Positions 3 through 43,481 of a stretch of 64,000 nt of DNA are shown one piece after another. The notes under the pieces are model-generated. The model was not told the origin of the DNA, searched no databases, and was given only the letters and a program-made list of their open reading frames with translations. The stretch's first letter is position 1; each line of letters starts with the position of its first letter. A program made the position numbers and the translations under genes. This DNA is from a virus (taxonomy: Duplodnaviria; Caudoviricetes). The DNA is taken from the IMG/VR virus record IMGVR_UViG_3300022601_000013. The stretch is one strand, 5' to 3'.

Positions 3-3000
3 AAGTTAATTGCAAATCCAAAAAACAATCAAGAGAAAATTTACAATGCGTTGATTTCTGGCAATGAGTTAGAGCAAAGCAAAAAAGGAATTGTTAACGG
101 ATATAGTGCCGAAGATAGAACATTAATTGCAAAAGCTATTACAGAAGGTCTTCAGCAAGGTTTAAAGGAAATTAATATTAAATTAGGCAATGGTGGGGAA
201 TTAGCTATTCCAAGCAATGCAGAAATCGCAAGTACAATTCTTAGCAAATTAGGTTTTACTACTAAAACAGATCCGCTGACAGATTTTGTACAAAAACAAT
301 TTAAGAAATCTAATATAGTTGGCGTTGCAAGTTCTGGTGACGACCATTATGTTTCGGATAGTAGCAAGTTTTATAAAGTGCCTCGTAGTATAAACAAATC
401 CGATTTAAACAATGATGACGTACAAATTAGAACTCTTGAATCAATACTTAATTATGTAAATATGTTTTCTGAGGCTACCGAGAAACTTCCAGCAAATGTA
501 AAAGAGTTTAGATACAAAATTGGATCTGGAACAAAAGCAAAGTCAAAATCTATGTATTTGTTTAAAACAGAAGATGGAAAATATATAGCATTAGATAAAT
601 CAAGTTTTGATGATGTTAAAAAAGTATCATCTGATATTATGTATAATCCTAAGTTGTTTGACAAAAATGGTACATATACTGGAGCTGTTTATGGTGTAAA
701 TAATGATAGAGCGTTAACATCTGGACTTTTACCAATAAGTTCAAAAAATGCTGAAGATAATTATAAAAAAGGTATTCCAGTTTCAAAGAGCGTGACTGAA
801 ACGAACAAAAAGCCGTTAGATTTACTTTCAATTCCTGTAAAAGCAATTGAAGCCGAAAATAAAGCTCTTGATAAGCAAGCTGAGAAAACCGAAAATATTA
901 TTGAGAACAATAAGAAACTTACATCTTCATACGAAGGACTTGTTGAAGCAGTTGAGCAGTATGTAAATACAAGTAAAAAGCTTTGGGATGCATATGATAA
1001 CAAAAAAGAAACTAACGAACTTACTAAAGAAAGAAACACAGCAATTGATAAAATTAAAACATTTTTCCCAGTTGATAATACCAACGGTATAAGTGCAAAT
1101 CTTACTCAATCTGGATATGAAATGAACTTGCAAGATGGCAATGTTTCAAGGGAATTTGCAAACAAAGGTGCTGAATTTACATTGCAACACATTGAGTCAA
1201 GCATTAAAGCATCTGAAATAGAACTTGAACAATTAAAAGAAAAAACAGAAGCTGAAGAAAAGCTTGCTCAAAACATAGAAAAAACAACAGAAGCAAAAAA
1301 GAAACAACAAAAGGTAATTAAAGAAACTCCTGTGGTGAACGAAGCACCAAAAGAGCAAACTAATGTTGTCAAAGAAAGTGTAAAGATAGCTGAAAAAGAA
1401 CTTGAAACAAAAAAAGAACAACTTAAGGTTGAAAAAGAGATTACTGCTGAAGAAACAAAAAGAGTAAAAACAAAAAAAACAACTAAAACTAAAACGCAAA
1501 TTAACCTTGATGAAGAGGGTAATAACGAAGATGAAAGAGTTGACATCATACAACAAACTGTAGATAAAGCACTTGAACGACTTAGAAACGCAGAAAACAA
1601 TATTGTTCCAAAACTAAACATTGATTTATCTAAAGTAGAAACTCAAGGCGATTTGCAATATCAGATTGGAAATCTTGTGCAATCATCATTAAATGCCGAT
1701 TTGTCTGTTGGTTCTGTTAATATTGATCACGATATAGCTAAAATTTCTTTGTATAATAAAGAACTTGGTTTAGTAACACAACAAATGTGGCAATTAAAAC
1801 AAGTTGAAGATTCGTTACAGTTAGAATTTCTTGATGCAAGTAAGTTAAATGTAAACTTTGAGCAAGCTGAAAAATACGCAATAGCTCAACAAAAAGCAAT
1901 TGATAGTGCTGAAAATTGGCTTATAAATGCTAACAAGAGATTAAATACTCAAAAAAGAAATTACCAGAAATCTCAAAAAAAGATAGCTGGTTCGACAGAA
2001 TTGATAGATGTCGATGCTACAACATTAGAGGCTCAGGCAGACAAAACAATTGATAGTTTGGTAGCTCATATTCAAGATCGTATAAATAGCAACATGGGCA
2101 AAACTGTTTCAGAGGGACTTAAAAATCAAATTGTAAAAGATTTAAATGCACTTGAGAATGAAATTAAAATACGACAATTAGAACAATATACAAGTACTAC
2201 AATGAGTGCATCTGAAGCAGAGTCTGCAAGACAGGTTATCATTAACACAATAGACTCTATAGCCGCAAACGCAAAACGAAAGAATGTGTTTGACCAAATT
2301 AAAGAAAGTTATGAAAGTTTGCGTTCACGTTTAACAGACAGTTCAATCGAAGGATACATTAGCACTAACTTTACTGATGCTATTAATGAAATGAGAGTTC
2401 TCAGAGCAGATTTATCTAAAAATTCTGCCGAAGAACAAAATCTTAAAAATCTTATTGCCCTTCAAGAAAAATTATATGAAGCAAAAAAGAAGGCAGCAGT
2501 ATTTGATATAAGCGGAGAGTCTAATACTTCTGGTGGAATGAAAGCTCACAGAATTGTTGAAGAATTACAACAACAATATAATGAGTCTGTTAAAGTTTTA
2601 AAAATAGAAGAGCAACGTAATACTATTACTGCACGTCAACAAAAATTACAAGAAGAGTTAAACAAATTTAACTCTGAGCAACGTTCAAAACAACAAGAGA
2701 CAAAAGATAAAGAGCAAGAAACTGCAAACAAAGCAAAACAAGAGCAACCAATAATGCAAACATATGCTTCGTTATTTGATATTACTAAAAACATAAACTC
2801 TATTAATGAGCAAATTATGAAGTATCAAGATAAAAATGATGGTTCGCAAATGTTTGCAAACTATATTTCAAACTTAAAGCTGCAAAGACAAGAGCTTGAA
2901 GTTGAACTTAATACTATAGTTAATGACTTAAGTAATTTTTATGCCAATGGTTATATACAAGGTAATCAAAAAATTAATCCAATTCCTTCAAAGCTTATAG

Positions 3001-6000
3001 ACGGAGAAAGCTATAATTCAATTAGTTCGTTTTTAAATGACATTAAAACACAAGCAGTTTTAAGCGAAAAAGAAATTAATGACTTATTAAATAGCTTTCA
3101 AAAAATGAAAGATATGGATATATCTGGTGGAAATAAGATAGCTGATATAATTAAACCTGTATTTGAAACATCTAATAGACTTGATGGTATTCAAGGATTA
3201 AAGCCAGAAAAAACAGCACCATTAGCTGGAATATCAGATACTATAAAAGCGTATGTTGGCAAAATTAAATCAGGAGAAATGTCATGGGATTCTGATGAAA
3301 TACCATATCTTAAACAGCTTATTGAAATGTATGTTAAATATGGCAATACGCTTGCAGATACAGCTGAAAAAGAACAGAAGTATTTTGCTAACAAACAAAA
3401 ATACACTTCTGGAATGAAACTGTCAGATGTTACTAATGTAAATACAGAAAACGAAAAAGCGTATAGTGATATGAGAAAGAAACTTGAAGATACAGCACGT
3501 AAGATGGCTGAAGAGTCTGGCAAGGGTCAGATTTTTACAACAGGTTTCTCTCAGGGTGCTGACGGCATTGCAAAACTTGATTTCTCTGTGTTTGACTCTG
3601 CTACAAAGTCGTTACAAAACTTTAGGCTTGAGATGGGTAATGTAACTAACAATATGTCTGTTACAGAAACAACTGTATCTAAATCGTTGCGTAATATTAA
3701 CGCAGCACGAAAACAACTTGAATCATCATCAAACTTACTTGGTATTTTAAGTAGTTCGGGTGTAAATGTTGGTGATGGTGCAACAAAATCAGTTTCTAAA
3801 CTTGTTACTCAAATTAGTTTGTTAGATACTGAAATGAGCAAAGGGGATAAGGCAGATCAAAGTAAAATTGCAATGTATACAAAGCAGCTTGGAATTATGT
3901 CTTCTGAAATTGATAAAGCATATAAACAAATGCTTAAGATGGAAGATGGTATTAGCAGCGGAACATTAAAAAACAGAGGTGTTATAGATACAAATAGCAA
4001 TGTGTATACCCAAGCAAAACAACAAATTGAATCTTATGCACAGACTATCCCAAACGCAACAGTAAGTATAGGTGCTTTTAATGAACAGACTGGCAAAATA
4101 CCATTTACTATAAATGTAGCCAATCAAGAAATAAGAAAATGCGAAGCCCAAATAAACTCTTTAAATGGACAAATGACAATTCAAGAAAAGAGCGTTAATC
4201 AGCTTAAAACTAATATTACTCAAGCGGCTGGAGCGTATGACAGGTTTAAGGGTTCATTAGCATCTGTTGGCAAACAGTTGGTTACTGCTGTTATTGGTTA
4301 TAATGCTTTTTATAAAGTTATTAGTATGTTTAGAACTGGTGTAGGCTATGTCAAAGAAATTGATTTAGCAATGACTGAGCTTAAAAAAGTAACTAATGAA
4401 ACATCAGAAACATATGATAAGTTTTTAAACAATGCATACAAATCTGCTGGTCAAGTAGGTGCTACAATATCTGACTTTGTACAGGCAAGTGCTAACTTCG
4501 CAAGACTTGGTTATGACCTTGATCAGACATCAGATATGGCACAAACAGCTATTGTGTATAAAAATGTAGCAGACGGCTTAAACAGTATTGACGATGCTAC
4601 TGAAAGTATTGTTTCTACTATGAAAGCATTTAATGTAGAAGCTGATGCTACAATGACTATAGCTGACAAATTCAACGAAGTTGGTAACTCATACGCTATA
4701 ACTTCAGCAGGCATAGGCGAAGCTTTAAAGCGTTCAGCATCATCATTGGCTGCTGCTGGAAACACATTAGATGAGTCAATTGCTCTTGTAACTGGAGCTA
4801 ATGCAGTAGTTCAAAATCCAGAAGTTGTTGGTACAGCATTAAAAACACTTTCGCTCAGAATCAGAGGTGTTAAGACCGAATTAGAAGAAGCTGGTCTTGA
4901 TGCTGAAAACATGGCTGAAACTACGGCAACATTGCATGAAAAATTATTAGCACTTAGCCACGGAAAAGTTGATATATTAAAAAATGCAGACGAGTTTGAA
5001 TCTACAACTGAAATTTTAAGACAACTTGCGTCAGCATGGGAAGATATGACTGATATGGAACAGGCTGCAGCAATTGAGCTCGTAGCTGGTAAACGTCAGG
5101 CAAACGTTGTGTCATCACTTATGACAAACTTTGATATAGTAGAAGATGCAATACAAACATCAATGAAGTCAGAAGGTTCTGCACTTAAAGAAAATCAAAA
5201 ATATCTTAATTCAATACAAGGTAAAACAGAAGCTCTCACAAGATCAACACAAGAGCTTTGGAATGAATTAATAAGTTCAGAAGTAATTAAATATTTTATT
5301 GATGTAACACAAGGTGTTGTTGATTTTGCTAACGCATTTGGTCCATTAAAAACAACATTGGCTGCAGTATTGACATATTTTATGGCGTTCAAAAAAGTAA
5401 ATCCATTGTTAACAATTCAAGGATTTATAAATCAAATGTCGGCTTATGGAAATGCTTCTACATCGTTGTCAAGCCTTACTGGTTCAATAGGTGTAAGTAA
5501 CTTAGGAACAGCAGAAATAGCTACATACGCAGCAGCTGTACAAAATTTAACGTACCAAAAACAAGCGGCTATACTTGCTACAAACGGTTTAAATCAAGCA
5601 ACTATAAAAGAGATATTACTTGAGAATAAAGCAACAGAAGCTGATATACAATCGGCAATGACACAATCAATTGTTACCAGACAAAAACAAGCTGATACAG
5701 CTGTCAATACAGCTTTAACTATAAGCACAGAAATGGCAAGTAATGCAAAATTAAGCGAGGCTGCAAGCAATTTTCTTTTAGCAAATACTGGGAAAGAGCT
5801 TACAAATCAAATGCTTGCCGAGGCTGTTGGTCGTGGTGCAATTACTAAAGCAACAAAAACAGAAATTGCAGCTAAATTTGGACTTATTGGTGTAAATACT
5901 GGTGTTGCAACATCAATTAAAGGTATTGGAACTGCAATAAGACTCGCCATTAGCTCAAATCCTATAGGGTTTATACTTGCAGTTGTTAGTACTATTGCTA

Positions 6001-9000
6001 TGGCTATTCCACTTTTTGATAGATTTAGTCAATCGGCTGAAGAACTTGCACAAGAAATGGAACAGGTTAAAGATGCATACAAACAAGTGTCTGATGAAAT
6101 TAACAGTAATATATCTAAAATCACTGACGTTGAAGACGAATTTAATCGTCTTTCAAAAGGTGTAAGTGACTTAGGCGAAAATATTTCATTATCGGCAGAC
6201 GATTATGCAAGATATCAAGAAATAGTTCAAGAACTTGTTGGTATATCTCCAAGCCTCATTTCTGGATACGACAAGGAAGGTAAAGCTATTGCGAACAAAA
6301 ATAGTTTAATTGAACGTTCAATTGAGCTTATGGAAAGAGAACAACAACTTGAGGCAAAAAAACTTACTACTGGAGATACAGGCAAAAATGTATTAAAAGA
6401 TATTAAAGACAGATACAATAAAACTGCTGGCAAAAAAAGTAGCGAAACACATGATTTTACAATAAATTACAGTGCAAGCCTTAATGATGAAGTGTGGAAG
6501 CATGTGGGTAAAAATGGTTTTGGCACACCAACAATTATTGAAGAAATTATCGGAGAAGATACATATGGCGGTGACGTAGTAGCGTTCGCAAGAGCGGAAT
6601 ACGAGAAGGTCATAGATGATTTAAGAAATGAAAATAGTGTTATTGAAAAATATCTTGGCACAGAATATGCAAACACCTTAAGAGAACGTGTTGCGGAATA
6701 CGAAGATTCTATGAAAATTTTTGATGCCGAATTAAGTAAAATCAAAAGTGAATACAACGAACAACTTTCTAATACCCTATTAGGTTCAGACGAATACTGG
6801 GATCTTAATAGTGATATGAGAGGTTATGCTCAAAGTTACGTTTTAAATCTTGATGTTAATACTGAAAATATAAATGAAAAAGAAAAGGAAGTAGAAGAAT
6901 TTGTTAAGTTCTTGTCTGAACATCAGGATGATTTTTCAGATACTTTTGAAAAAGGATATGATGCAATATCAAAAACAGACGAAAAAGGTATAGCTATATC
7001 GTACAAAAAGTATATTAAAAATGTTGAAGATTTTAAGAAAGAACTTCAAGATAATACAGTTTATAATGACGAGCAAAAGAACTGGATTCTTTCAACACTT
7101 GGTTTTGATACTATAGATGAAGACTTAGAAAAAAAGGTTGATAAAATAAGAAATACATTAATAACAGACATTGCTGGGCCTACGCATAAAAGCGTTGTTG
7201 GACCGTCAAATGACACTGTAGATAAACAAATTGAAATAGGAAACTTTATTAACAGCCTTTCTACTCAAGATCTTGAAATATTTTACACAATTAGTGCAAG
7301 TCCAAACAGTATGACATTTGATGAAATTATTGCCGCAATACAAAAAGTAAAAGATTCAACTGGTGTAGGCGTTATTGGTATTGAAACACAAAGCTCAATT
7401 GTTGAACAGTTTGAAAAACATAAGGAAATTTTAACTCAAACTCAAGAAATCTTTATGGACAATGTTGCTGTAACAGAAGAGTATAAAACAGCATTAACTG
7501 AACTTGGTATTTCTGCAACAGAATTAAATGAATGTTTCTATGAAGCAAATCCGCTTGTTGTAAAAAATGCTGAAAAACTTAAAGAACTTATAAAGAACAC
7601 AAAAAACAATACAGCAAACAATACAAAATTAGCAAAAAGCCAAGCAATGCTTAAGTACACAAAATTGCAGAAGCAAACTCAAGATTTAGCAAAAAGATAT
7701 AAAACTTTAACATCCGCTGAAAAATCACAGTTAAAGGCAATGTATGAAGAAATGTCAGTTTTGCAGAAAAACATTGCTAAATATTCATTACTTGAACACC
7801 AACTTCTTGGAACAGCTAATGCATATGAAGAGTTTGCGAATGCTCAGGAAATAGACAGTAGCAATACTTATACAGAACAAGCTCAAGATATGGCTAATGC
7901 ACTTGCAGAAGCTTTTAATTCAGCAAAGCTTGGTACAGAAAGTGCTCAAGCCGCAATTAAAGGTCTTGTGCCAGAGAGTGTATATAAGGATATTGACATT
8001 CTTGATGATAAAATGCAAGCTATATACGACTATTTCAACGGTGGCACACTTTCAAAATATATCACAATAGAATACAATGATGATGATCATAGTATTGAAA
8101 GAGTCGAAATAACAATGGAGAATATGAAAAAATTCTTCGAAGATGGCAAAACTAATGGTGTGTTTACTGGAACGTGGGATGAGTTTGATTTAGACCCAAC
8201 AATTAATAGTTTAGACCAGCTTGCCGAAAAGATGAATGTTACAAAAGAAGTGGCATTCGCAGTAATGCAAGAAATGGAAAAATATGATATTAATTGGCTT
8301 GGTGGCGATTTTACTACATTACTTGACAGACTTTCTCCAGATTTTAATAGCCTTGAAAATGAGATTTACAAAACATCTACTGCGATGGCTGAACTTGAAC
8401 AGGAATTCATTAATGGCACTGTCTCGGAAGAAGAGTATGGCGAACAAGTTCAAAAGTTATCTGTTCAAATGAGTGACTTAAACGAAGCGGCAAAAGAAAA
8501 AGCTTTGTCATATATAGAACTTAATAAAGAGATTACTGATGTAACTACAGAATTACAAAATGCACGAAAAGAATTAAACAAAGATCCAGAGAATGAAGAG
8601 GCTTTAAATACTGTTAAAGAGCTATCAGAAAAATACAAAGAGCTTGCAATACGCAAAGCCGAATTGGGCAATTTATCTGAACTTGAAATGGCACAGGCAC
8701 TTGAGGCGGCGAGTATAAATGCAGATAACTTAAATGACTCGTTAAGAGAAGTTGATGGCAATATAGAAACTACAATTGAAGGCTTAGAAAAAACTTATGG
8801 AATTATTGCTAATATAAACTCTGATGGTGGTATTGAACTTTCTATGTCAGGCTCTATGAGCACAGAATTACAAGAACAATTAAAAGGTATAGGAGCTCTT
8901 AAAGATGATGGAACTATTGATATATCTCTGTTCTATAATACTTTAAATGACGAGCAAAAGAAGCAATTTGATTCACTTAATGAGCTTACTGGTAAAAAGA

Positions 9001-12000
9001 ACTTAATCGAATATGCAATGAGCATGGATGGTGAAGACGCAGTGCAAGAGGCTCTTGATGGTATTCTTCAAGTATTAACTAATATCTTTGAGCAACTTCA
9101 ACAGCACCCATCTCTTACTATAAATACTTCTTCAGCAAAAACAAATGTAGATAGTGTTTTAACCTCATTAAAAGACATTGTAAATGGCACATGGGATAAA
9201 TCTGTAACTATTACAAGAACTATAAAAGACCGTGTATCAAGTATATTTGGTTCTGGTCAAGCTAACGGTAATGCAAATGTTAAAGGAAATGCGTATGTTA
9301 ATGGTAAGTTTGGAGCACCAAAAACAGAGGAATCACTTGTTGGCGAACTTGGCCCAGAAATGCGTGTGCGTGGAAACAGATGGGAATTACTTGGAGAAAA
9401 TGGTGCAGAGTTTACAGAAGTTAAAAAAGATGACATAATCTTTAACCATAAACAAACAAAACAACTCCTTGAAAATGGTCATATAAATTCTCGTGGAAAG
9501 GCATATGCTTCTGGAACAGCGTATGCTGGTATTAACACATGGGTAAGTGGCTATCACGATACAAGTGGTAGCGGCAATGGAGATAGTTCATCTTCAGATG
9601 ACGCTAAAGACGAATTCAAAGAAGTCTTCGATTGGTTTGAAGTTAAACTTGAAGAAATCAATGAGTTACTTGATTTATGGGCTGCTCAACTTGAAAATAT
9701 AGTTGATATTTCTGGCAAGGGTGCAAAGATAGATAGTATTATTGACCAAAACAAATATAAGCTTGATATACTTGCACAAGGTCTTAAGCTTTATGAAAAT
9801 TATACAAATCAATTATTAACTGATATTCCTGCACAGTATAGAGAGGCTGCCAAGAACGGAAAAATTGCAATAGAAACATTTGCTGGCGATGCTGGTGAAA
9901 AGACTCTTGAAGCAATAAACAATTATAGAGACTGGGCTCAAAAGGTTGCTGATGTTAAACAGCAAATGGAAGAACTTACTCAGACAATTGCTGATTTAGC
10001 TAAACAGAAATTTGATATTATTGATGAAGGATATGGTAATAAAATAACTCTTATGGAGCTTCAGATTGACAGGTTGAAAGATTCTGTTCAGTTGATAGAA
10101 GATAAGGGTAATATTGCTGCTTCTCAATATTATGATGCAATGACTAATATAACAAATGATAGAATTAGCAAATTACAAGAAGAACATAAGCTGTTACAGA
10201 AGTCGTTAGACGAATCTGTTGAGGCTGGAGATATTGCTAAATATTCTGATAGATGGTATGAAATGGTTGAAGCAATATATACTGTTGACCAAGAAATCAT
10301 GGAATGCACATCAGACCTTGAAGAATTCCAAAATGCAATCAATGAAATTCATTGGAATAATTTTGATGAGTTAGTTAACAGACTTGAGTACTTACAATCA
10401 GAAACTGATAGCTTAATTGACTTAATGGAGCAAACTGGTGAAATTATTGATTATCCAAAAGATAATGAATACTGGGGAGCAAAGGATGTTGCGTGGAGCA
10501 AAGAGGGCATTACATCTTTAGGATTGTATGCTCAAAAAATGGAAATTGCTGAATACACATCTGAACAATATGCTAAGGCAATTGATAATCTTAATAAAGA
10601 TTATAAGGCTGGTAAGTATAGTGTTAGTGAATATCAGGAGAAACTTGATGAATTAAAACAAGCTCAGTATGACTCAATTAAAACCTACTATGATGCTCAA
10701 GATGCAATTGTAGACCTTAATAAAACCAGAGTTGATGCAATAAAAGATGGCATTAATAAGGAAATAGAAGCATACGAAAAACTTATAAACAAAAAGAAAG
10801 AAGAGCTTAGTGTCGAAAAGGATATGTATGACTTCCAGAAAGATATAGCTGAGAAACAAAAAGATATAAGTGCAATTGAAAGAAAAATATCAGCATTATC
10901 TATGGACAATTCCGCTTCAGCAGTAGCACAAAGAAAGAAACTTGAAGCAGAACTTGCAGAAGCTAAAAACACTCTTGATGAAACATATTACGACAGAAGC
11001 ATCACAGACCAACAAAACGCCCTTGATAAGGAACTTGAAAGCTTTAAAGAACAAAAAGATGCTGAAATAGAAAAGTGGGAAGAATATTTAGAAGATGTTC
11101 AAAAAGTTGTAGCAGATAGTCTTGGTATTGTGCAGACAAATGCTATTGGTGTTTATGACACATTATCTGAAAAGGCTTCTGAATATAATTTAACATTGTC
11201 AAATTCCATAACAACTCCTTGGAAGGACGGTATGAATGCCGTTAGTTCATATCAAGAAACATTTAATACTGCTTCAAGCTCTACATATGAACAGCTTGGT
11301 AATATTAAGCAACAGTGGCAAGATATTATTGATTTAATGGTTAAAGCTGCTAATGTTGATATTAGTAATCAAAAAGTTGACAATCAAACTCATGTTGCCG
11401 CTGAAAAGAAACAGCAACCTACAAAACAAACTACTACTACACAACAATCACAATCAACTTCTGCAAAATCTGCTCAACCAAGCACATCTGCAGGAAGTAC
11501 AATTACAGTAAAATCTACAGCAACACATTTTGCTACAGGTCAGCGTATGGCAAGTTTTGTTCCTGGCGGTAGTTATACCGTATATCAGGATAATGGTGAC
11601 AGAGTTCTGATTGGTAGAAATGGTGCTTATACTGGCTGGATTTACAAAAAAGATATTCAAGGATATGCGTCAGGCACAACTGGTGTAAAGAATAATCAAC
11701 TTGCATTGATTGATGAACTCGGTGAGGAGTTAGTTATGCATGCAGATGGAAATGGAAAGCTTACTTTCTTGTCAAAAGGAAGCTCGGTAATTCCACATGA
11801 CATTTCTGAAAACTTAATGAAGATTGGCTCAATTGACCCTCAAGAAGTTTTAGACAGAAATAGAGCATCTATCAGCATTGCACCAAGTGTTGCAAACAAT
11901 AATGTAAATATAAACATTAGTTATGGAGATATTTTACATATTGATAAGTTTGATGGAAACAATCCTGAAGACATAGCTAAACTCGTTGAGGCACGATTTA

Positions 12001-12050
12001 ATGAACACACTAAGAGCTTAAACAACTCGTTGAAAAAGTATGTAAGATAA
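3..12050 (+). CDS. giant phage tail tape measure protein, 5'-truncated by the window
   Basis: Frame is open upstream of the TTG at 51 to the window edge. TP901-type TMP core (VKEIDLAMTELKKVT...FARLGY...KFNEVGN), hydrophobic segments, long coiled coils, GELGPE/DELGEE motifs, SH3-like C-terminal segment; precedes Dit/Tal-like genes. Confidence 0.9.
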   Translation, partial: KLIANPKNNQEKIYNALISGNELEQSKKGIVNGYSAEDRTLIAKAITEGLQQGLKEINIKLGNGGELAIPSNAEIASTILSKLGFTTKTDPLTDFVQKQFKKSNIVGVASSGDDHYVSDSSKFYKVPRSINKSDLNNDDVQIRTLESILNYVNMFSEATEKLPANVKEFRYKIGSGTKAKSKSMYLFKTEDGKYIALDKSSFDDVKKVSSDIMYNPKLFDKNGTYTGAVYGVNNDRALTSGLLPISSKNAEDNYKKGIPVSKSVTETNKKPLDLLSIPVKAIEAENKALDKQAEKTENIIENNKKLTSSYEGLVEAVEQYVNTSKKLWDAYDNKKETNELTKERNTAIDKIKTFFPVDNTNGISANLTQSGYEMNLQDGNVSREFANKGAEFTLQHIESSIKASEIELEQLKEKTEAEEKLAQNIEKTTEAKKKQQKVIKETPVVNEAPKEQTNVVKESVKIAEKELETKKEQLKVEKEITAEETKRVKTKKTTKTKTQINLDEEGNNEDERVDIIQQTVDKALERLRNAENNIVPKLNIDLSKVETQGDLQYQIGNLVQSSLNADLSVGSVNIDHDIAKISLYNKELGLVTQQMWQLKQVEDSLQLEFLDASKLNVNFEQAEKYAIAQQKAIDSAENWLINANKRLNTQKRNYQKSQKKIAGSTELIDVDATTLEAQADKTIDSLVAHIQDRINSNMGKTVSEGLKNQIVKDLNALENEIKIRQLEQYTSTTMSASEAESARQVIINTIDSIAANAKRKNVFDQIKESYESLRSRLTDSSIEGYISTNFTDAINEMRVLRADLSKNSAEEQNLKNLIALQEKLYEAKKKAAVFDISGESNTSGGMKAHRIVEELQQQYNESVKVLKIEEQRNTITARQQKLQEELNKFNSEQRSKQQETKDKEQETANKAKQEQPIMQTYASLFDITKNINSINEQIMKYQDKNDGSQMFANYISNLKLQRQELEVELNTIVNDLSNFYANGYIQGNQKINPIPSKLIDGESYNSISSFLNDIKTQAVLSEKEINDLLNSFQKMKDMDISGGNKIADIIKPVFETSNRLDGIQGLKPEKTAPLAGISDTIKAYVGKIKSGEMSWDSDEIPYLKQLIEMYVKYGNTLADTAEKEQKYFANKQKYTSGMKLSDVTNVNTENEKAYSDMRKKLEDTARKMAEESGKGQIFTTGFSQGADGIAKLDFSVFDSATKSLQNFRLEMGNVTNNMSVTETTVSKSLRNINAARKQLESSSNLLGILSSSGVNVGDGATKSVSKLVTQISLLDTEMSKGDKADQSKIAMYTKQLGIMSSEIDKAYKQMLKMEDGISSGTLKNRGVIDTNSNVYTQAKQQIESYAQTIPNATVSIGAFNEQTGKIPFTINVANQEIRKCEAQINSLNGQMTIQEKSVNQLKTNITQAAGAYDRFKGSLASVGKQLVTAVIGYNAFYKVISMFRTGVGYVKEIDLAMTELKKVTNETSETYDKFLNNAYKSAGQVGATISDFVQASANFARLGYDLDQTSDMAQTAIVYKNVADGLNSIDDATESIVSTMKAFNVEADATMTIADKFNEVGNSYAITSAGIGEALKRSASSLAAAGNTLDESIALVTGANAVVQNPEVVGTALKTLSLRIRGVKTELEEAGLDAENMAETTATLHEKLLALSHGKVDILKNADEFESTTEILRQLASAWEDMTDMEQAAAIELVAGKRQANVVSSLMTNFDIVEDAIQTSMKSEGSALKENQKYLNSIQGKTEALTRSTQELWNELISSEVIKYFIDVTQGVVDFANAFGPLKTTLAAVLTYFMAFKKVNPLLTIQGFINQMSAYGNASTSLSSLTGSIGVSNLGTAEIATYAAAVQNLTYQKQAAILATNGLNQATIKEILLENKATEADIQSAMTQSIVTRQKQADTAVNTALTISTEMASNAKLSEAASNFLLANTGKELTNQMLAEAVGRGAITKATKTEIAAKFGLIGVNTGVATSIKGIGTAIRLAISSNPIGFILAVVSTIAMAIPLFDRFSQSAEELAQEMEQVKDAYKQVSDEINSNISKITDVEDEFNRLSKGVSDLGENISLSADDYARYQEIVQELVGISPSLISGYDKEGKAIANKNSLIERSIELMEREQQLEAKKLTTGDTGKNVLKDIKDRYNKTAGKKSSETHDFTINYSASLNDEVWKHVGKNGFGTPTIIEEIIGEDTYGGDVVAFARAEYEKVIDDLRNENSVIEKYLGTEYANTLRERVAEYEDSMKIFDAELSKIKSEYNEQLSNTLLGSDEYWDLNSDMRGYAQSYVLNLDVNTENINEKEKEVEEFVKFLSEHQDDFSDTFEKGYDAISKTDEKGIAISYKKYIKNVEDFKKELQDNTVYNDEQKNWILSTLGFDTIDEDLEKKVDKIRNTLITDIAGPTHKSVVGPSNDTVDKQIEIGNFINSLSTQDLEIFYTISASPNSMTFDEIIAAIQKVKDSTGVGVIGIETQSSIVEQFEKHKEILTQTQEIFMDNVAVTEEYKTALTELGISATELNECFYEANPLVVKNAEKLKELIKNTKNNTANNTKLAKSQAMLKYTKLQKQTQDLAKRYKTLTSAEKSQLKAMYEEMSVLQKNIAKYSLLEHQLLGTANAYEEFANAQEIDSSNTYTEQAQDMANALAEAFNSAKLGTESAQAAIKGLVPESVYKDIDILDDKMQAIYDYFNGGTLSKYITIEYNDDDHSIERVEITMENMKKFFEDGKTNGVFTGTWDEFDLDPTINSLDQLAEKMNVTKEVAFAVMQEMEKYDINWLGGDFTTLLDRLSPDFNSLENEIYKTSTAMAELEQEFINGTVSEEEYGEQVQKLSVQMSDLNEAAKEKALSYIELNKEITDVTTELQNARKELNKDPENEEALNTVKELSEKYKELAIRKAELGNLSELEMAQALEAASINADNLNDSLREVDGNIETTIEGLEKTYGIIANINSDGGIELSMSGSMSTELQEQLKGIGALKDDGTIDISLFYNTLNDEQKKQFDSLNELTGKKNLIEYAMSMDGEDAVQEALDGILQVLTNIFEQLQQHPSLTINTSSAKTNVDSVLTSLKDIVNGTWDKSVTITRTIKDRVSSIFGSGQANGNANVKGNAYVNGKFGAPKTEESLVGELGPEMRVRGNRWELLGENGAEFTEVKKDDIIFNHKQTKQLLENGHINSRGKAYASGTAYAGINTWVSGYHDTSGSGNGDSSSSDDAKDEFKEVFDWFEVKLEEINELLDLWAAQLENIVDISGKGAKIDSIIDQNKYKLDILAQGLKLYENYTNQLLTDIPAQYREAAKNGKIAIETFAGDAGEKTLEAINNYRDWAQKVADVKQQMEELTQTIADLAKQKFDIIDEGYGNKITLMELQIDRLKDSVQLIEDKGNIAASQYYDAMTNITNDRISKLQEEHKLLQKSLDESVEAGDIAKYSDRWYEMVEAIYTVDQEIMECTSDLEEFQNAINEIHWNNFDELVNRLEYLQSETDSLIDLMEQTGEIIDYPKDNEYWGAKDVAWSKEGITSLGLYAQKMEIAEYTSEQYAKAIDNLNKDYKAGKYSVSEYQEKLDELKQAQYDSIKTYYDAQDAIVDLNKTRVDAIKDGINKEIEAYEKLINKKKEELSVEKDMYDFQKDIAEKQKDISAIERKISALSMDNSASAVAQRKKLEAELAEAKNTLDETYYDRSITDQQNALDKELESFKEQKDAEIEKWEEYLEDVQKVVADSLGIVQTNAIGVYDTLSEKASEYNLTLSNSITTPWKDGMNAVSSYQETFNTASSSTYEQLGNIKQQWQDIIDLMVKAANVDISNQKVDNQTHVAAEKKQQPTKQTTTTQQSQSTSAKSAQPSTSAGSTITVKSTATHFATGQRMASFVPGGSYTVYQDNGDRVLIGRNGAYTGWIYKKDIQGYASGTTGVKNNQLALIDELGEELVMHADGNGKLTFLSKGSSVIPHDISENLMKIGSIDPQEVLDRNRASISIAPSVANNNVNINISYGDILHIDKFDGNNPEDIAKLVEARFNEHTKSLNNSLKKYVR

Positions 12051-39723: not shown

Positions 39724-39811
39724 TAACGAGGAGGTATCCAAAATGGAAATCGAAGATGTTGGTGCTCCTGACCAGACTTGAACTGGTACGGTATCGCTAC
39801 CGAGGGATTTT

Positions 39812-40596
39812 CTTCCCACTCCATGTCGCCATGGCCGAGTTTTATTTCAACTCGTTGTGGGCTGGACTATGTCTTAACCATATCTTTTTTGACTTAGGTT
39901 GACCCTGTATAGTCTCTACGCACTTCCAATATAATTGGATTGGTACGGCGTTCTCAGAATTGTTCGCCGTTTAGGGGTCATTCACGCAAGAAGTTTCCTT
40001 CAAGGTGCTCCTACAAGAAATTTTTAATGTAACAAATTTTCCTTATGTTTTTTAGTGTTTTTGCCTCTGTAATTATCAGTTAAAGCGTGACAATTTGGAC
40101 ATAACAATTCAAGATTTTCTATATCATTGTTGTCTTTGTCTCCATCTTTGTGATGAACCTCAAGAGGTATCGGAACATTATTCCACATTGTATTTAAACA
40201 GCGTTCACAAATATGTTCTTTGAGTCCTTCTCTAAGAAGCTTCTTTCTGATTTTATTTGTTTGGATATGATCACTTTTTACATATTCTTCAAACGGCATA
40301 TATCTATCGCTTTCGTATGTTTTTCCTGAAAGCCATCCTTGCCCTGTAAAATGCGAAGTGTCTAAATCGTATTGCTCTATCATCTGGTGCATTTGAGCAA
40401 CACTACTGCCAGAGTTTTGTTTATATCCACATTTTCTGGACAATTGAGCATAATTAAAACTTTCTCTTACAAATTGTTCAATTTCTTGCCGAGTAAATCT
40501 TTCCCATTTTTTCATACAAATCACCTAATTTTTTAATATTAGACAATTCTTTAAGCGTCTTGTATGAATTTTTTATAAAAGAATTACTTTCTGAAA
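39812..40596 (-). mobile_element. group I intron (IC3-like), 785 nt, inserted after U34
   Basis: Terminal G; GUAGAGACUA (39919-39910) and AAGACAUAGUCC (39875-39864) form P7; UGACCC/GGGUCA P3; CCUAAG...UAUGG tetraloop receptor; ACGGCG/CGCCGU P4. Confidence 0.92.
40024..40524 (-). CDS. intron-encoded HNH homing endonuclease
   Basis: CERC...LEVHHKDGDKDNNDIENLELLCPNCH; lies inside the intron. Confidence 0.9.
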   Translation of the reverse strand: MICMKKWERFTRQEIEQFVRESFNYAQLSRKCGYKQNSGSSVAQMHQMIEQYDLDTSHFTGQGWLSGKTYESDRYMPFEEYVKSDHIQTNKIRKKLLREGLKEHICERCLNTMWNNVPIPLEVHHKDGDKDNNDIENLELLCPNCHALTDNYRGKNTKKHKENLLH

Positions 40597-40638
40597 AAGT
40601 CCCTTGTGTCTGCCTATTCCACCACAGGAGCTTGGGTA

Positions 40639-40699
40639 TCTACGGAGCGTGGCCAAGCAGTGACCACCACATCAAAATTGTGCTGCTTTACTCCGTAGA
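40639..40699 (-). ncRNA. small structured RNA element between tRNA-Lys and tRNA-Leu
   Basis: 9 bp outer stem UCUACGGAG/CUCCGUAGA, inner AAGCAG/CUGCUU, possible GUGGUC/GGCCAC pseudoknot. Confidence 0.5.
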
Positions 40700-40807: not shown

Positions 40808-41254
40808 GATAGCTGGTTGGTCGAACCAACTATCATTAATGACTCGCTCTCGTTGCCCTTATAATATCAATAATTAATAAACGACCAACTTTACACATTA
40901 TATCTACCAAGTAGGCAACATCAATACTTGAAAAGACTCAACGTGGTCGGCTTGCGAGCGTATGTATAGGCCTGTTGAGTTCTACAATCAACTTTAACCA
41001 ACCTTTGATTGGTACTCCCTCAAACCTCATGCGGTAATTAGGAGCAAAACTAAGGATAGTGGATATCCAACTATCCGTACAAAACACTCGTCAGCGTTTT
41101 AATATATTTTTTAAATATTCCTGTCACTCTTTAAGGTTCTCTGGCAGGCGAACTACGAGATGTTTACAAACTTTTAAGCTACTCGATATCATTTCACTTA
41201 AATTGTCAGATTATAGAGCCCCGCTGCTCAAGGTACTTTCTCACAGGTGCTCTC
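40808..41254 (-). ncRNA. large structured ncRNA candidate between tRNA-Ser and tRNA-Lys
   Basis: No minus-strand ORF of 60 aa or more; at least seven helices and two crossing pairings; most wobble pairs favour the minus strand. Confidence 0.6.
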
Positions 41255-43311: not shown

Positions 43312-43396
43312 TGGTTGGGGTAGCTGGATTCGAACCAGCGTAAAGCTTTCGCTGACGGAGTCAAAGTCCGTTGCCTTACCACTTGGCGATACCCCA
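43312..43396 (-). tRNA. tRNA-Gln(UUG) with atypical long variable arm
   Basis: U1-A72 acceptor UGGGGUA/UACCCCA, ACGGA-CU-UUG-AC-UCCGU, 15 nt variable region, CCA; 85 nt. Confidence 0.9.
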
Positions 43397-43452: not shown

Positions 43453-43481
43453 ATTATATCATATTAATTTTGTATTGTCAA
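43453..43481 (-). promoter_or_regulatory. sigmaA promoter with conserved box, upstream of the RNA island
   Basis: TTGACA-ATACAAAATTAATATGA-TATAAT. Confidence 0.85.

Follow-up and report, generated by a model that had tools for sequence, protein, structure and literature searches.

A split tRNA-Leu(UAA) gene in a phage tRNA cluster

The tRNA-Leu(UAA) gene at positions 40631–39760 of the window (the whole 64,000-nt stretch of phage DNA analysed here, IMG/VR record IMGVR_UViG_3300022601_000013) lies on the minus strand and is interrupted by a 785-nt intron (40596–39812) inserted between U34 and A35 of the anticodon loop (Table 1). When its two exons were joined, ARAGORN folded them into a canonical 87-nt tRNA-Leu(UAA) cloverleaf whose variable arm is long and whose CCA is encoded; on the unjoined DNA, the same program run with introns enabled called tRNA-Leu(taa) i(36,785). 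An earlier note, made from the letters alone, had joined two tRNA halves 785 nt apart into a complete tRNA-Leu with the anticodon split U|AA, had placed the insertion at the classic trnL site, and had proposed an intron-enabled ARAGORN run; the two calls bear out both readings. The same division of the loop was found in the 38 bacterial tRNA-Leu introns that were fetched. Under default settings, ARAGORN and the Rfam tRNA model missed the split gene and reported only the neighbouring tRNA-Lys, tRNA-Ser and tRNA-Gln.

Several features were observed around this gene. The spacer between tRNA-Lys and tRNA-Leu (40640–40699, minus strand) adopts a stable Y-shaped fold with a 10-bp closing stem (-26.6 kcal/mol, z = -3.4), which may be a processing signal. 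A promoter-like site of the sigma-70 type, matching at 10 of 12 positions, is located at 40924–40897, upstream of tRNA-Lys and tRNA-Leu, and a perfect sigma-70-type promoter (12/12) with an extended -10 TG is situated at 43453–43481 (minus strand), directly upstream of tRNA-Gln. The tRNA-Gln(UUG) gene itself (43312–43396, minus strand; 85 nt) is atypical of a class I tRNA in that its variable region contains a 12-nt insert. At the other end of the window, a frame (3–12050, plus strand) stays open for at least 4015 aa and runs off the 5' edge.

Table 1. Features of the intron-split tRNA-Leu(UAA) gene, listed in the direction of transcription. R1 is the covariance model of bacterial tRNA-Leu(UAA) introns described in the text; L019 is a related phage intron.
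Feature	Position	Strand	Description	Basis
tRNA-Leu(UAA) exon 1	40597..40631 (35 nt)	-	Acceptor 5' strand, D arm, anticodon stem 5' strand, loop to U34	ARAGORN
Group I intron	39812..40596 (785 nt)	-	Terminal G at 39812	ARAGORN i(36,785); RF00028 29.5 bits (gathering score 50); R1 79 bits
P1 5' strand	40586..40599	-	Last 3 exon and first 11 intron bases	Read from sequence
Conserved 8–10 bp hairpin in P1-loop leader	40545..40585	-		Consensus fold; compensatory changes in L019
Hairpin with 3' strand overlapping the HNH Shine-Dalgarno sequence (40526–40521)	40523..40544	-		Consensus fold; three pairs change on both sides
Predicted HNH homing-endonuclease gene	40024..40515	-	163 aa from ATG, stop included	ORF list; Pfam; phrog_10822, E 1.6e-39; dN/dS
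Internal guide sequence (P1 3' strand)	40008..40021	-	Pairs with 40599–40586	R1 aligns 40011–40007 to the bacterial guide
P2 with GAAA tetraloop L2 (39997–39994)	39984..40006	-		R1 alignment; 9/9 P2 pairs covary across phage introns
P3 (39979–39975 with 39905–39901)	39901..39979	-	Encloses P4, P5, P6/P6a and the P7 5' strand	R1 alignment; single-sequence fold; covariation
P4	39970–39965 with 39950–39945	-		R1 alignment; single-sequence fold; covariation
P6/P6a	39944–39922	-		R1 alignment; single-sequence fold; covariation
P8 with 11-nt GAAA-tetraloop receptor (39898–39893 with 39882–39878)	39876..39900	-		Sequence; R1 alignment
P7 3' strand (guanosine-binding helix)	39865..39870	-	6 bp with 39914–39909	Read from sequence; block conserved in all homologs
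P9 three-way junction	39815..39861	-	P9, P9a, P9b; GNRA loop on P9b	Eight homologs fold alike, with compensatory changes
tRNA-Leu(UAA) exon 2	39760..39811 (52 nt)	-	A35 onward, variable arm, T arm, acceptor 3' strand, CCA	ARAGORN

The ribozyme core and its bacterial relatives

Prokaryote genomes were scanned for the P7/P3'/P8 block, which recovered mostly ORF-less introns of 200–260 nt at U34|A35 of tRNA-Leu(UAA) from Proteobacteria, Acidobacteriota and other groups, as well as introns in tRNA-Arg(CCU) genes and in genes with a CAU anticodon (called tRNA-Met by ARAGORN). From 28 of the ORF-less tRNA-Leu(UAA) introns, with the window excluded, we built a covariance model, R1, that extends from the guide to the 3' strand of P7. 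R1 matched the window once in 64 kb, at 40011–39858, over its full length and with 79 bits (E 2e-22). Thus, the window intron is a diverged member of the bacterial tRNA-intron lineage classed as IC3, its score standing against 140–185 bits for bacterial tRNA-Leu introns and 108–122 bits for bacterial introns of tRNA-Arg(CCU) and of CAU-anticodon genes, the Azoarcus-type setting (about 109 bits in, for example, a Rhodocyclaceae MAG). The IC3 label proposed earlier holds in the sense that the core is homologous to bacterial tRNA introns so classed, GISSD assigning all four classical types of bacterial tRNA group I intron to IC3 (Williams 2020 preprint, 10.1101/2020.01.27.920355). A cmsearch with group I models had also been suggested; while R1 gave the clear match above, Rfam Intron_gpI (RF00028) aligned at 40027–39845 with 29.5 bits (E 3e-5), short of the gathering score of 50. 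Among the 12 seeds of that Rfam model there is no bacterial sequence, and 18–20 bits have been used for tRNA introns (Williams 2020, 10.1101/2020.01.27.920355).

The helices P3 to P9 are present, including the P3/P7 pseudoknot, as judged from the R1 match, folding and covariation, and an energy fold of 40030–39812 recovered most of them (P3, P4, P6, P8 and P9; z = -2.5). The compact periphery of the lineage (Leu.3Ug) is likewise in place: P2 is there, P5abc is lacking, and the L2 tetraloop has its 11-nt receptor in P8; P5 is minimal, even smaller than in the bacterial members. Both splice signals are intact, with U40597 (-1) opposite G40010 in P1, the U.G pair that the earlier note had described, and G39812 preceding exon 2. 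The terminal G, P3, P4, P7 and the tetraloop receptor that it had listed were all recovered in the R1 alignment and the sequence.

A pattern scan of IMG/VR yielded 45 loci, about 34 of which are real introns inside phage tRNA genes, most of them in tRNA-Leu(UAA) and others in Lys, Ser and Arg tRNA genes; R1 matches about 30–34 of the phage tRNA introns. In the alignment of these introns, fitted to R1 and hence favouring the structure, 89% of cells pair, compared with 33–41% when the partners are slid, and both sides change in 30 of 37 pairs, with P2, P3, P4, P5, P6 and P8 covarying. The P7 block is invariant in all homologs and therefore offers no covariation test. Chance is excluded as a source of the match, given the E-values and the compensatory changes seen in homologs. 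When 68 introns were placed in an approximate tree over 151 columns, without support values, most phage introns fell into one cluster, which also held three gut or rumen MAG contigs, and an intron of the GenBank record LR756511.1 was placed among the bacterial introns; this grouping of phage versus bacterial sequences is no more than suggestive. Some phage tRNA clusters, among them those of L010 (two) and L040 (three), hold several R1 matches inside a few kb, so intron-split tRNA genes can be multiple per phage.

Shared by cyanobacteria and chloroplasts, the intron of tRNA-Leu(UAA) is the textbook example of an 'ancient' one, treated as ORF-less and with its lateral movement debated. This bacterial and plastid intron, known since 1990 (Kuhsel et al. 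1990, via PMC3984707; Williams 2020), shares with the phage intron the U34|A35 site, a homologous guide, P2–P9 and the junction sequences. Likewise, the phage intron has the L2 GAAA loop with its receptor in P8 and the three-way junction of P9 that the bacterial tRNA-Leu introns possess. The two differ in size and content: the bacterial introns have 200–260 nt and no ORF (38 of the 38 fetched, in line with the earlier statement that this intron type normally lacks one), whereas the phage intron has 785 nt, an HNH gene in its P1 loop and a much reduced P5. The Azoarcus-type intron of pre-tRNA-Ile(CAU), also IC3, resembles the phage intron in its compact core, its P7/P3/P8 block and its tetraloop-receptor clamp, as far as the cited accounts describe it (PMC3984707, PMC13168695), but resides in another tRNA, after position 36, without an ORF and in a bacterial host.

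The P1 pairing and the HNH gene in its loop

Since the guide aligned by R1 lies 3' of the ORF, directly before P2, and the 5' splice site lies 5' of it, the HNH ORF is located in the P1 loop by topology, between the 5' splice site and the guide as had been proposed. The guide starts 3 nt past the HNH stop codon. The resulting long-range P1 contains only three exon pairs, is A/U-rich and is not thermodynamically preferred in duplex and cofold predictions. In another intron with an ORF in the P1 loop, L003, the exon carries U instead of C at -3 and the guide A instead of G, a compensatory change that supports pairing across the ORF. We reject a placement of the ORF in P2 or in the P1/P2 junction in view of the R1 alignment and this covariation.

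A consensus fold of four homologous leaders predicted, besides the two leader hairpins of Table 1, a 6-bp hairpin at the 5' splice site (40600–40595 with 40591–40586), which can sequester that site; neither this hairpin nor the one over the Shine-Dalgarno sequence figured in the earlier note. Were this hairpin the catalytic P1, the ORF would lie between P1 and P2; such an arrangement would be more local, is predicted in all four close homologs and would sit easily with cofolding that does not favour the long-range pairing. We nevertheless regard it as very improbable, because it sets U(-1) opposite an A rather than the conserved G, because R1 aligns 40011–40007, just 5' of P2, with the bacterial guide, and because of the exon/guide change in L003. 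Moreover, the distal P1 strand is invariant in the window and in its relatives L001 and L091, although the surroundings differ. With the long-range P1 preferred, the buried Shine-Dalgarno sequence and a stop codon 3 nt from the guide suggest that translation and P1 formation compete; on these predicted folds, HNH translation and P1 formation probably exclude each other.

The ORF encodes 166 aa from the listed GTG start and 163 aa from the ATG at 40515, the latter being the more likely start because it follows a Shine-Dalgarno sequence. The product matched Pfam HNH_3 with 32.3 bits (cut-off 24.8) and HNH with 26.6 bits (cut-off 21.4), and its HNH catalytic motif with paired Cys-x-x-Cys zinc ligands is conserved in seven of seven intron-borne homologs; a PDB sequence search with the protein returned nothing significant. 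Across the window, L001, L091 and L019, the HNH gene showed dN/dS values of 0.13–0.25, computed with saturated synonymous sites (dS above 1). These values indicate purifying selection and point to a working nuclease.

The ORF occupies the P1 loop in the window, L001, L091, L019 and L003, and the P6 loop in L004 and LR756511.1. In the latter, an unannotated 595-kb record of an uncultured phage in GenBank, a tRNA-Leu(UAA) gene (L212 1228–2014, about 409.2–410.0 kb) contains a 700-nt group I intron with an HNH gene of the same family. A further tRNA-Leu(UAA) intron was observed in a Bacteroidales MAG contig from Hadza gut (L146, 4741–5521), where the HNH frame is already open at the 5' splice site and may start at a TTG codon that spans the exon-intron boundary; this contig may be a phage binned into the MAG.

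Free-standing HNH genes of the same family occur outside any intron among the tRNA genes of T5-like phages (for example T5 ORF070, beside tRNA-Met), in contrast to the intron-borne gene of the window, with 33–40% identity over about 90% of the length; we take these to be the published F-Tfl enzymes. I-Ssp6803I is a PD-(D/E)XK nuclease of a cyanobacterial chromosome, whereas the enzyme described here is an HNH protein in a phage tRNA-Leu gene. The Synechocystis tRNA-fMet intron that encodes it is, like the phage element, an anticodon-loop group I intron that carries a homing endonuclease of its own, directed at the anticodon region according to the review through which it is cited here (Bonocora and Shub 2001, via PMC3984707). 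Group I introns with HNH homing (nicking) enzymes in a peripheral loop are likewise known from the Bacillota phages SPO1 (I-HmuI), Bastille (I-BasI) and Twort (I-TwoI), in protein-coding genes and not, as here, in a tRNA gene (PMC3984707, PMC3943268).

Spread, proposed mobility and meaning

The IMG/VR phages L001, L091 and L019 have close copies of the intron at the same site, likewise with a P1-loop ORF. Between the window and L001 or L091, the intron core is 89–91% identical in nucleotides and the HNH protein 68–73% in amino acids; L019 is a more distant copy whose HNH is 48% identical to that of the window. By comparison, the DNA polymerases of these intron-bearing phages are only 25–40% identical to the polymerase of the window, far below the 68–91% of intron and HNH, which points to horizontal spread. 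The flanks of L001 share nothing else with the window, and its tRNA-Leu has different acceptor and anticodon stems. Its tRNA cluster also holds a tRNA with an 8-nt anticodon loop and a four-base anticodon, tttt (L001 5690–5766; ARAGORN). G001, the genome that carries L091, is a distant relative in which the element is syntenic and adjoins a homolog of the 41800–42453 gene; therefore, part of the distribution could be vertical.

The tRNA-Leu of L091 (1495–1529 and 2298–2349 in IMG/VR 3300045988_132810) has a non-canonical T loop and was not called by ARAGORN even with introns allowed, and it may be decaying while its intron and HNH gene are intact. This aberrant homolog, the reduced P5 and the Rfam score below gathering are what could be cited for the window locus being a relic, a tRNA pseudogene with a dead, non-splicing intron. 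That reading is the least credible of those considered: in the window, the core helices, the junctions, the U-G pair, the terminal G and the canonical tRNA are all intact, and the core is about 90% conserved while the synonymous sites of the ORF are saturated (dS above 1).

The carrier is a gut-type phage. Its best polymerase matches, at about 30%, are to phages of Brevibacillus, Bacillus and Alicyclobacillus and to human faecal contigs; the host group named in the earlier note, a Bacillota phage, is no more than consistent with these matches. No close relative of the region was found in the INPHARED phage collection, where the core alone gave only 44-nt matches in or near helicase genes of Staphylococcus Silviavirus phages, and the neighbouring 382-aa protein, used as a query, found no viral-contig relative.

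A survey of related phages for empty alleles, which had been proposed as a further check, succeeded in part. It yielded 41 IMG/VR contigs with an intronless tRNA-Leu(UAA) gene identical over 30 nt around the insertion site, which are candidate targets, but neither these 41 contigs nor one scanned metagenome yielded a near-isogenic phage whose site is empty. The nearest intronless allele, L055, has seven differences and belongs to a phage that shares nothing else with the window; the metagenome contained one intronless tRNA-Leu, with a different anticodon stem.

With a probability of roughly 0.8, we consider the element to be a genuine group I intron of the bacterial tRNA lineage (IC3), located at the classic U34|A35 site in a phage and carrying an HNH gene inserted in its P1 loop, for which we propose both splicing and homing. 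The tRNA cluster would be transcribed, possibly from the promoter-like site at 40924–40897. The core 3' of the ORF (P2–P9) would fold, held by docking of the L2 GAAA loop in the P8 receptor, and the guide (40021–40008), reaching back over about 570 nt, would pair with the 5' splice site to give P1 and its U-G wobble. Guanosine-initiated splicing would then join the exons into a functional tRNA-Leu. The HNH protein would be translated from the precursor or from the excised intron RNA, and would cut or nick intronless tRNA-Leu(UAA) genes near the anticodon, whereupon repair would copy the intron in, for example during co-infection. That the element is still mobile, as the earlier note had supposed, is suggested by near-identical elements in phages with divergent polymerases and by the purifying selection on the HNH gene.

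Alternatively, the intron could be a real ribozyme that is now immobile and vertically inherited, its HNH protein being inactive in homing or otherwise useful, for instance by cutting the tRNA regions of competitor phages or by assisting splicing. The syntenic element of G001 beside the homolog of the 41800–42453 gene, the lack of an empty allele in a close relative and the free-standing occurrence of the same HNH family in the T5 tRNA region would all agree with such a resident. We judge it distinctly unlikely, given the 68–91% identity of intron and HNH against 25–40% for the polymerases, the fact that L001 bears the element in unrelated surroundings, within a tRNA-Leu whose acceptor and anticodon stems differ, and the purifying selection on the nuclease gene.

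A spliced and mobile intron at this locus remains our preferred reading, and what is new in it is a classic tRNA-Leu intron in a phage, with an HNH gene in the P1 loop. Its location contradicts the summary of a 2014 review, according to which the phage introns known by then were all located in protein-coding genes, even though phage tRNA genes are numerous (PMC3984707). The tRNA introns of Lak megaphages from gut metagenomes, the first phage tRNA introns known to their authors, were described as 'enigmatic' and include tRNA-like inserts (Devoto et al. 2019, PMC6784885); those introns are unclassified, whereas the window intron is demonstrably group I. The bacterial tRNA group I introns have been catalogued (Williams 2020, 10.1101/2020.01.27.920355), and in the full-text literature, as far as its incomplete coverage extends, we found no account of phage tRNA genes with group I introns.

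As default tRNA finders miss such split genes, phage tRNA inventories and the inferences on codon supply drawn from them are undercounted. At 785 nt, the element is small enough for direct in vitro tests of splicing, of nuclease specificity and of the proposed competition of splicing with translation. The same intron type has passed between phages that can barely be aligned in their core genes, which makes phages a plausible vehicle for its spread. Two further ideas are doubtful though conceivable: that the P1-loop nuclease constitutes a built-in translation/splicing switch and, separately, that phage HNH-bearing tRNA-Leu(UAA) introns form a mobile reservoir seeding the ORF-less bacterial ones. 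Such a reservoir, if it existed, would bear on the long-running question of whether the intron of cyanobacteria and plastids is ancient or has spread laterally.
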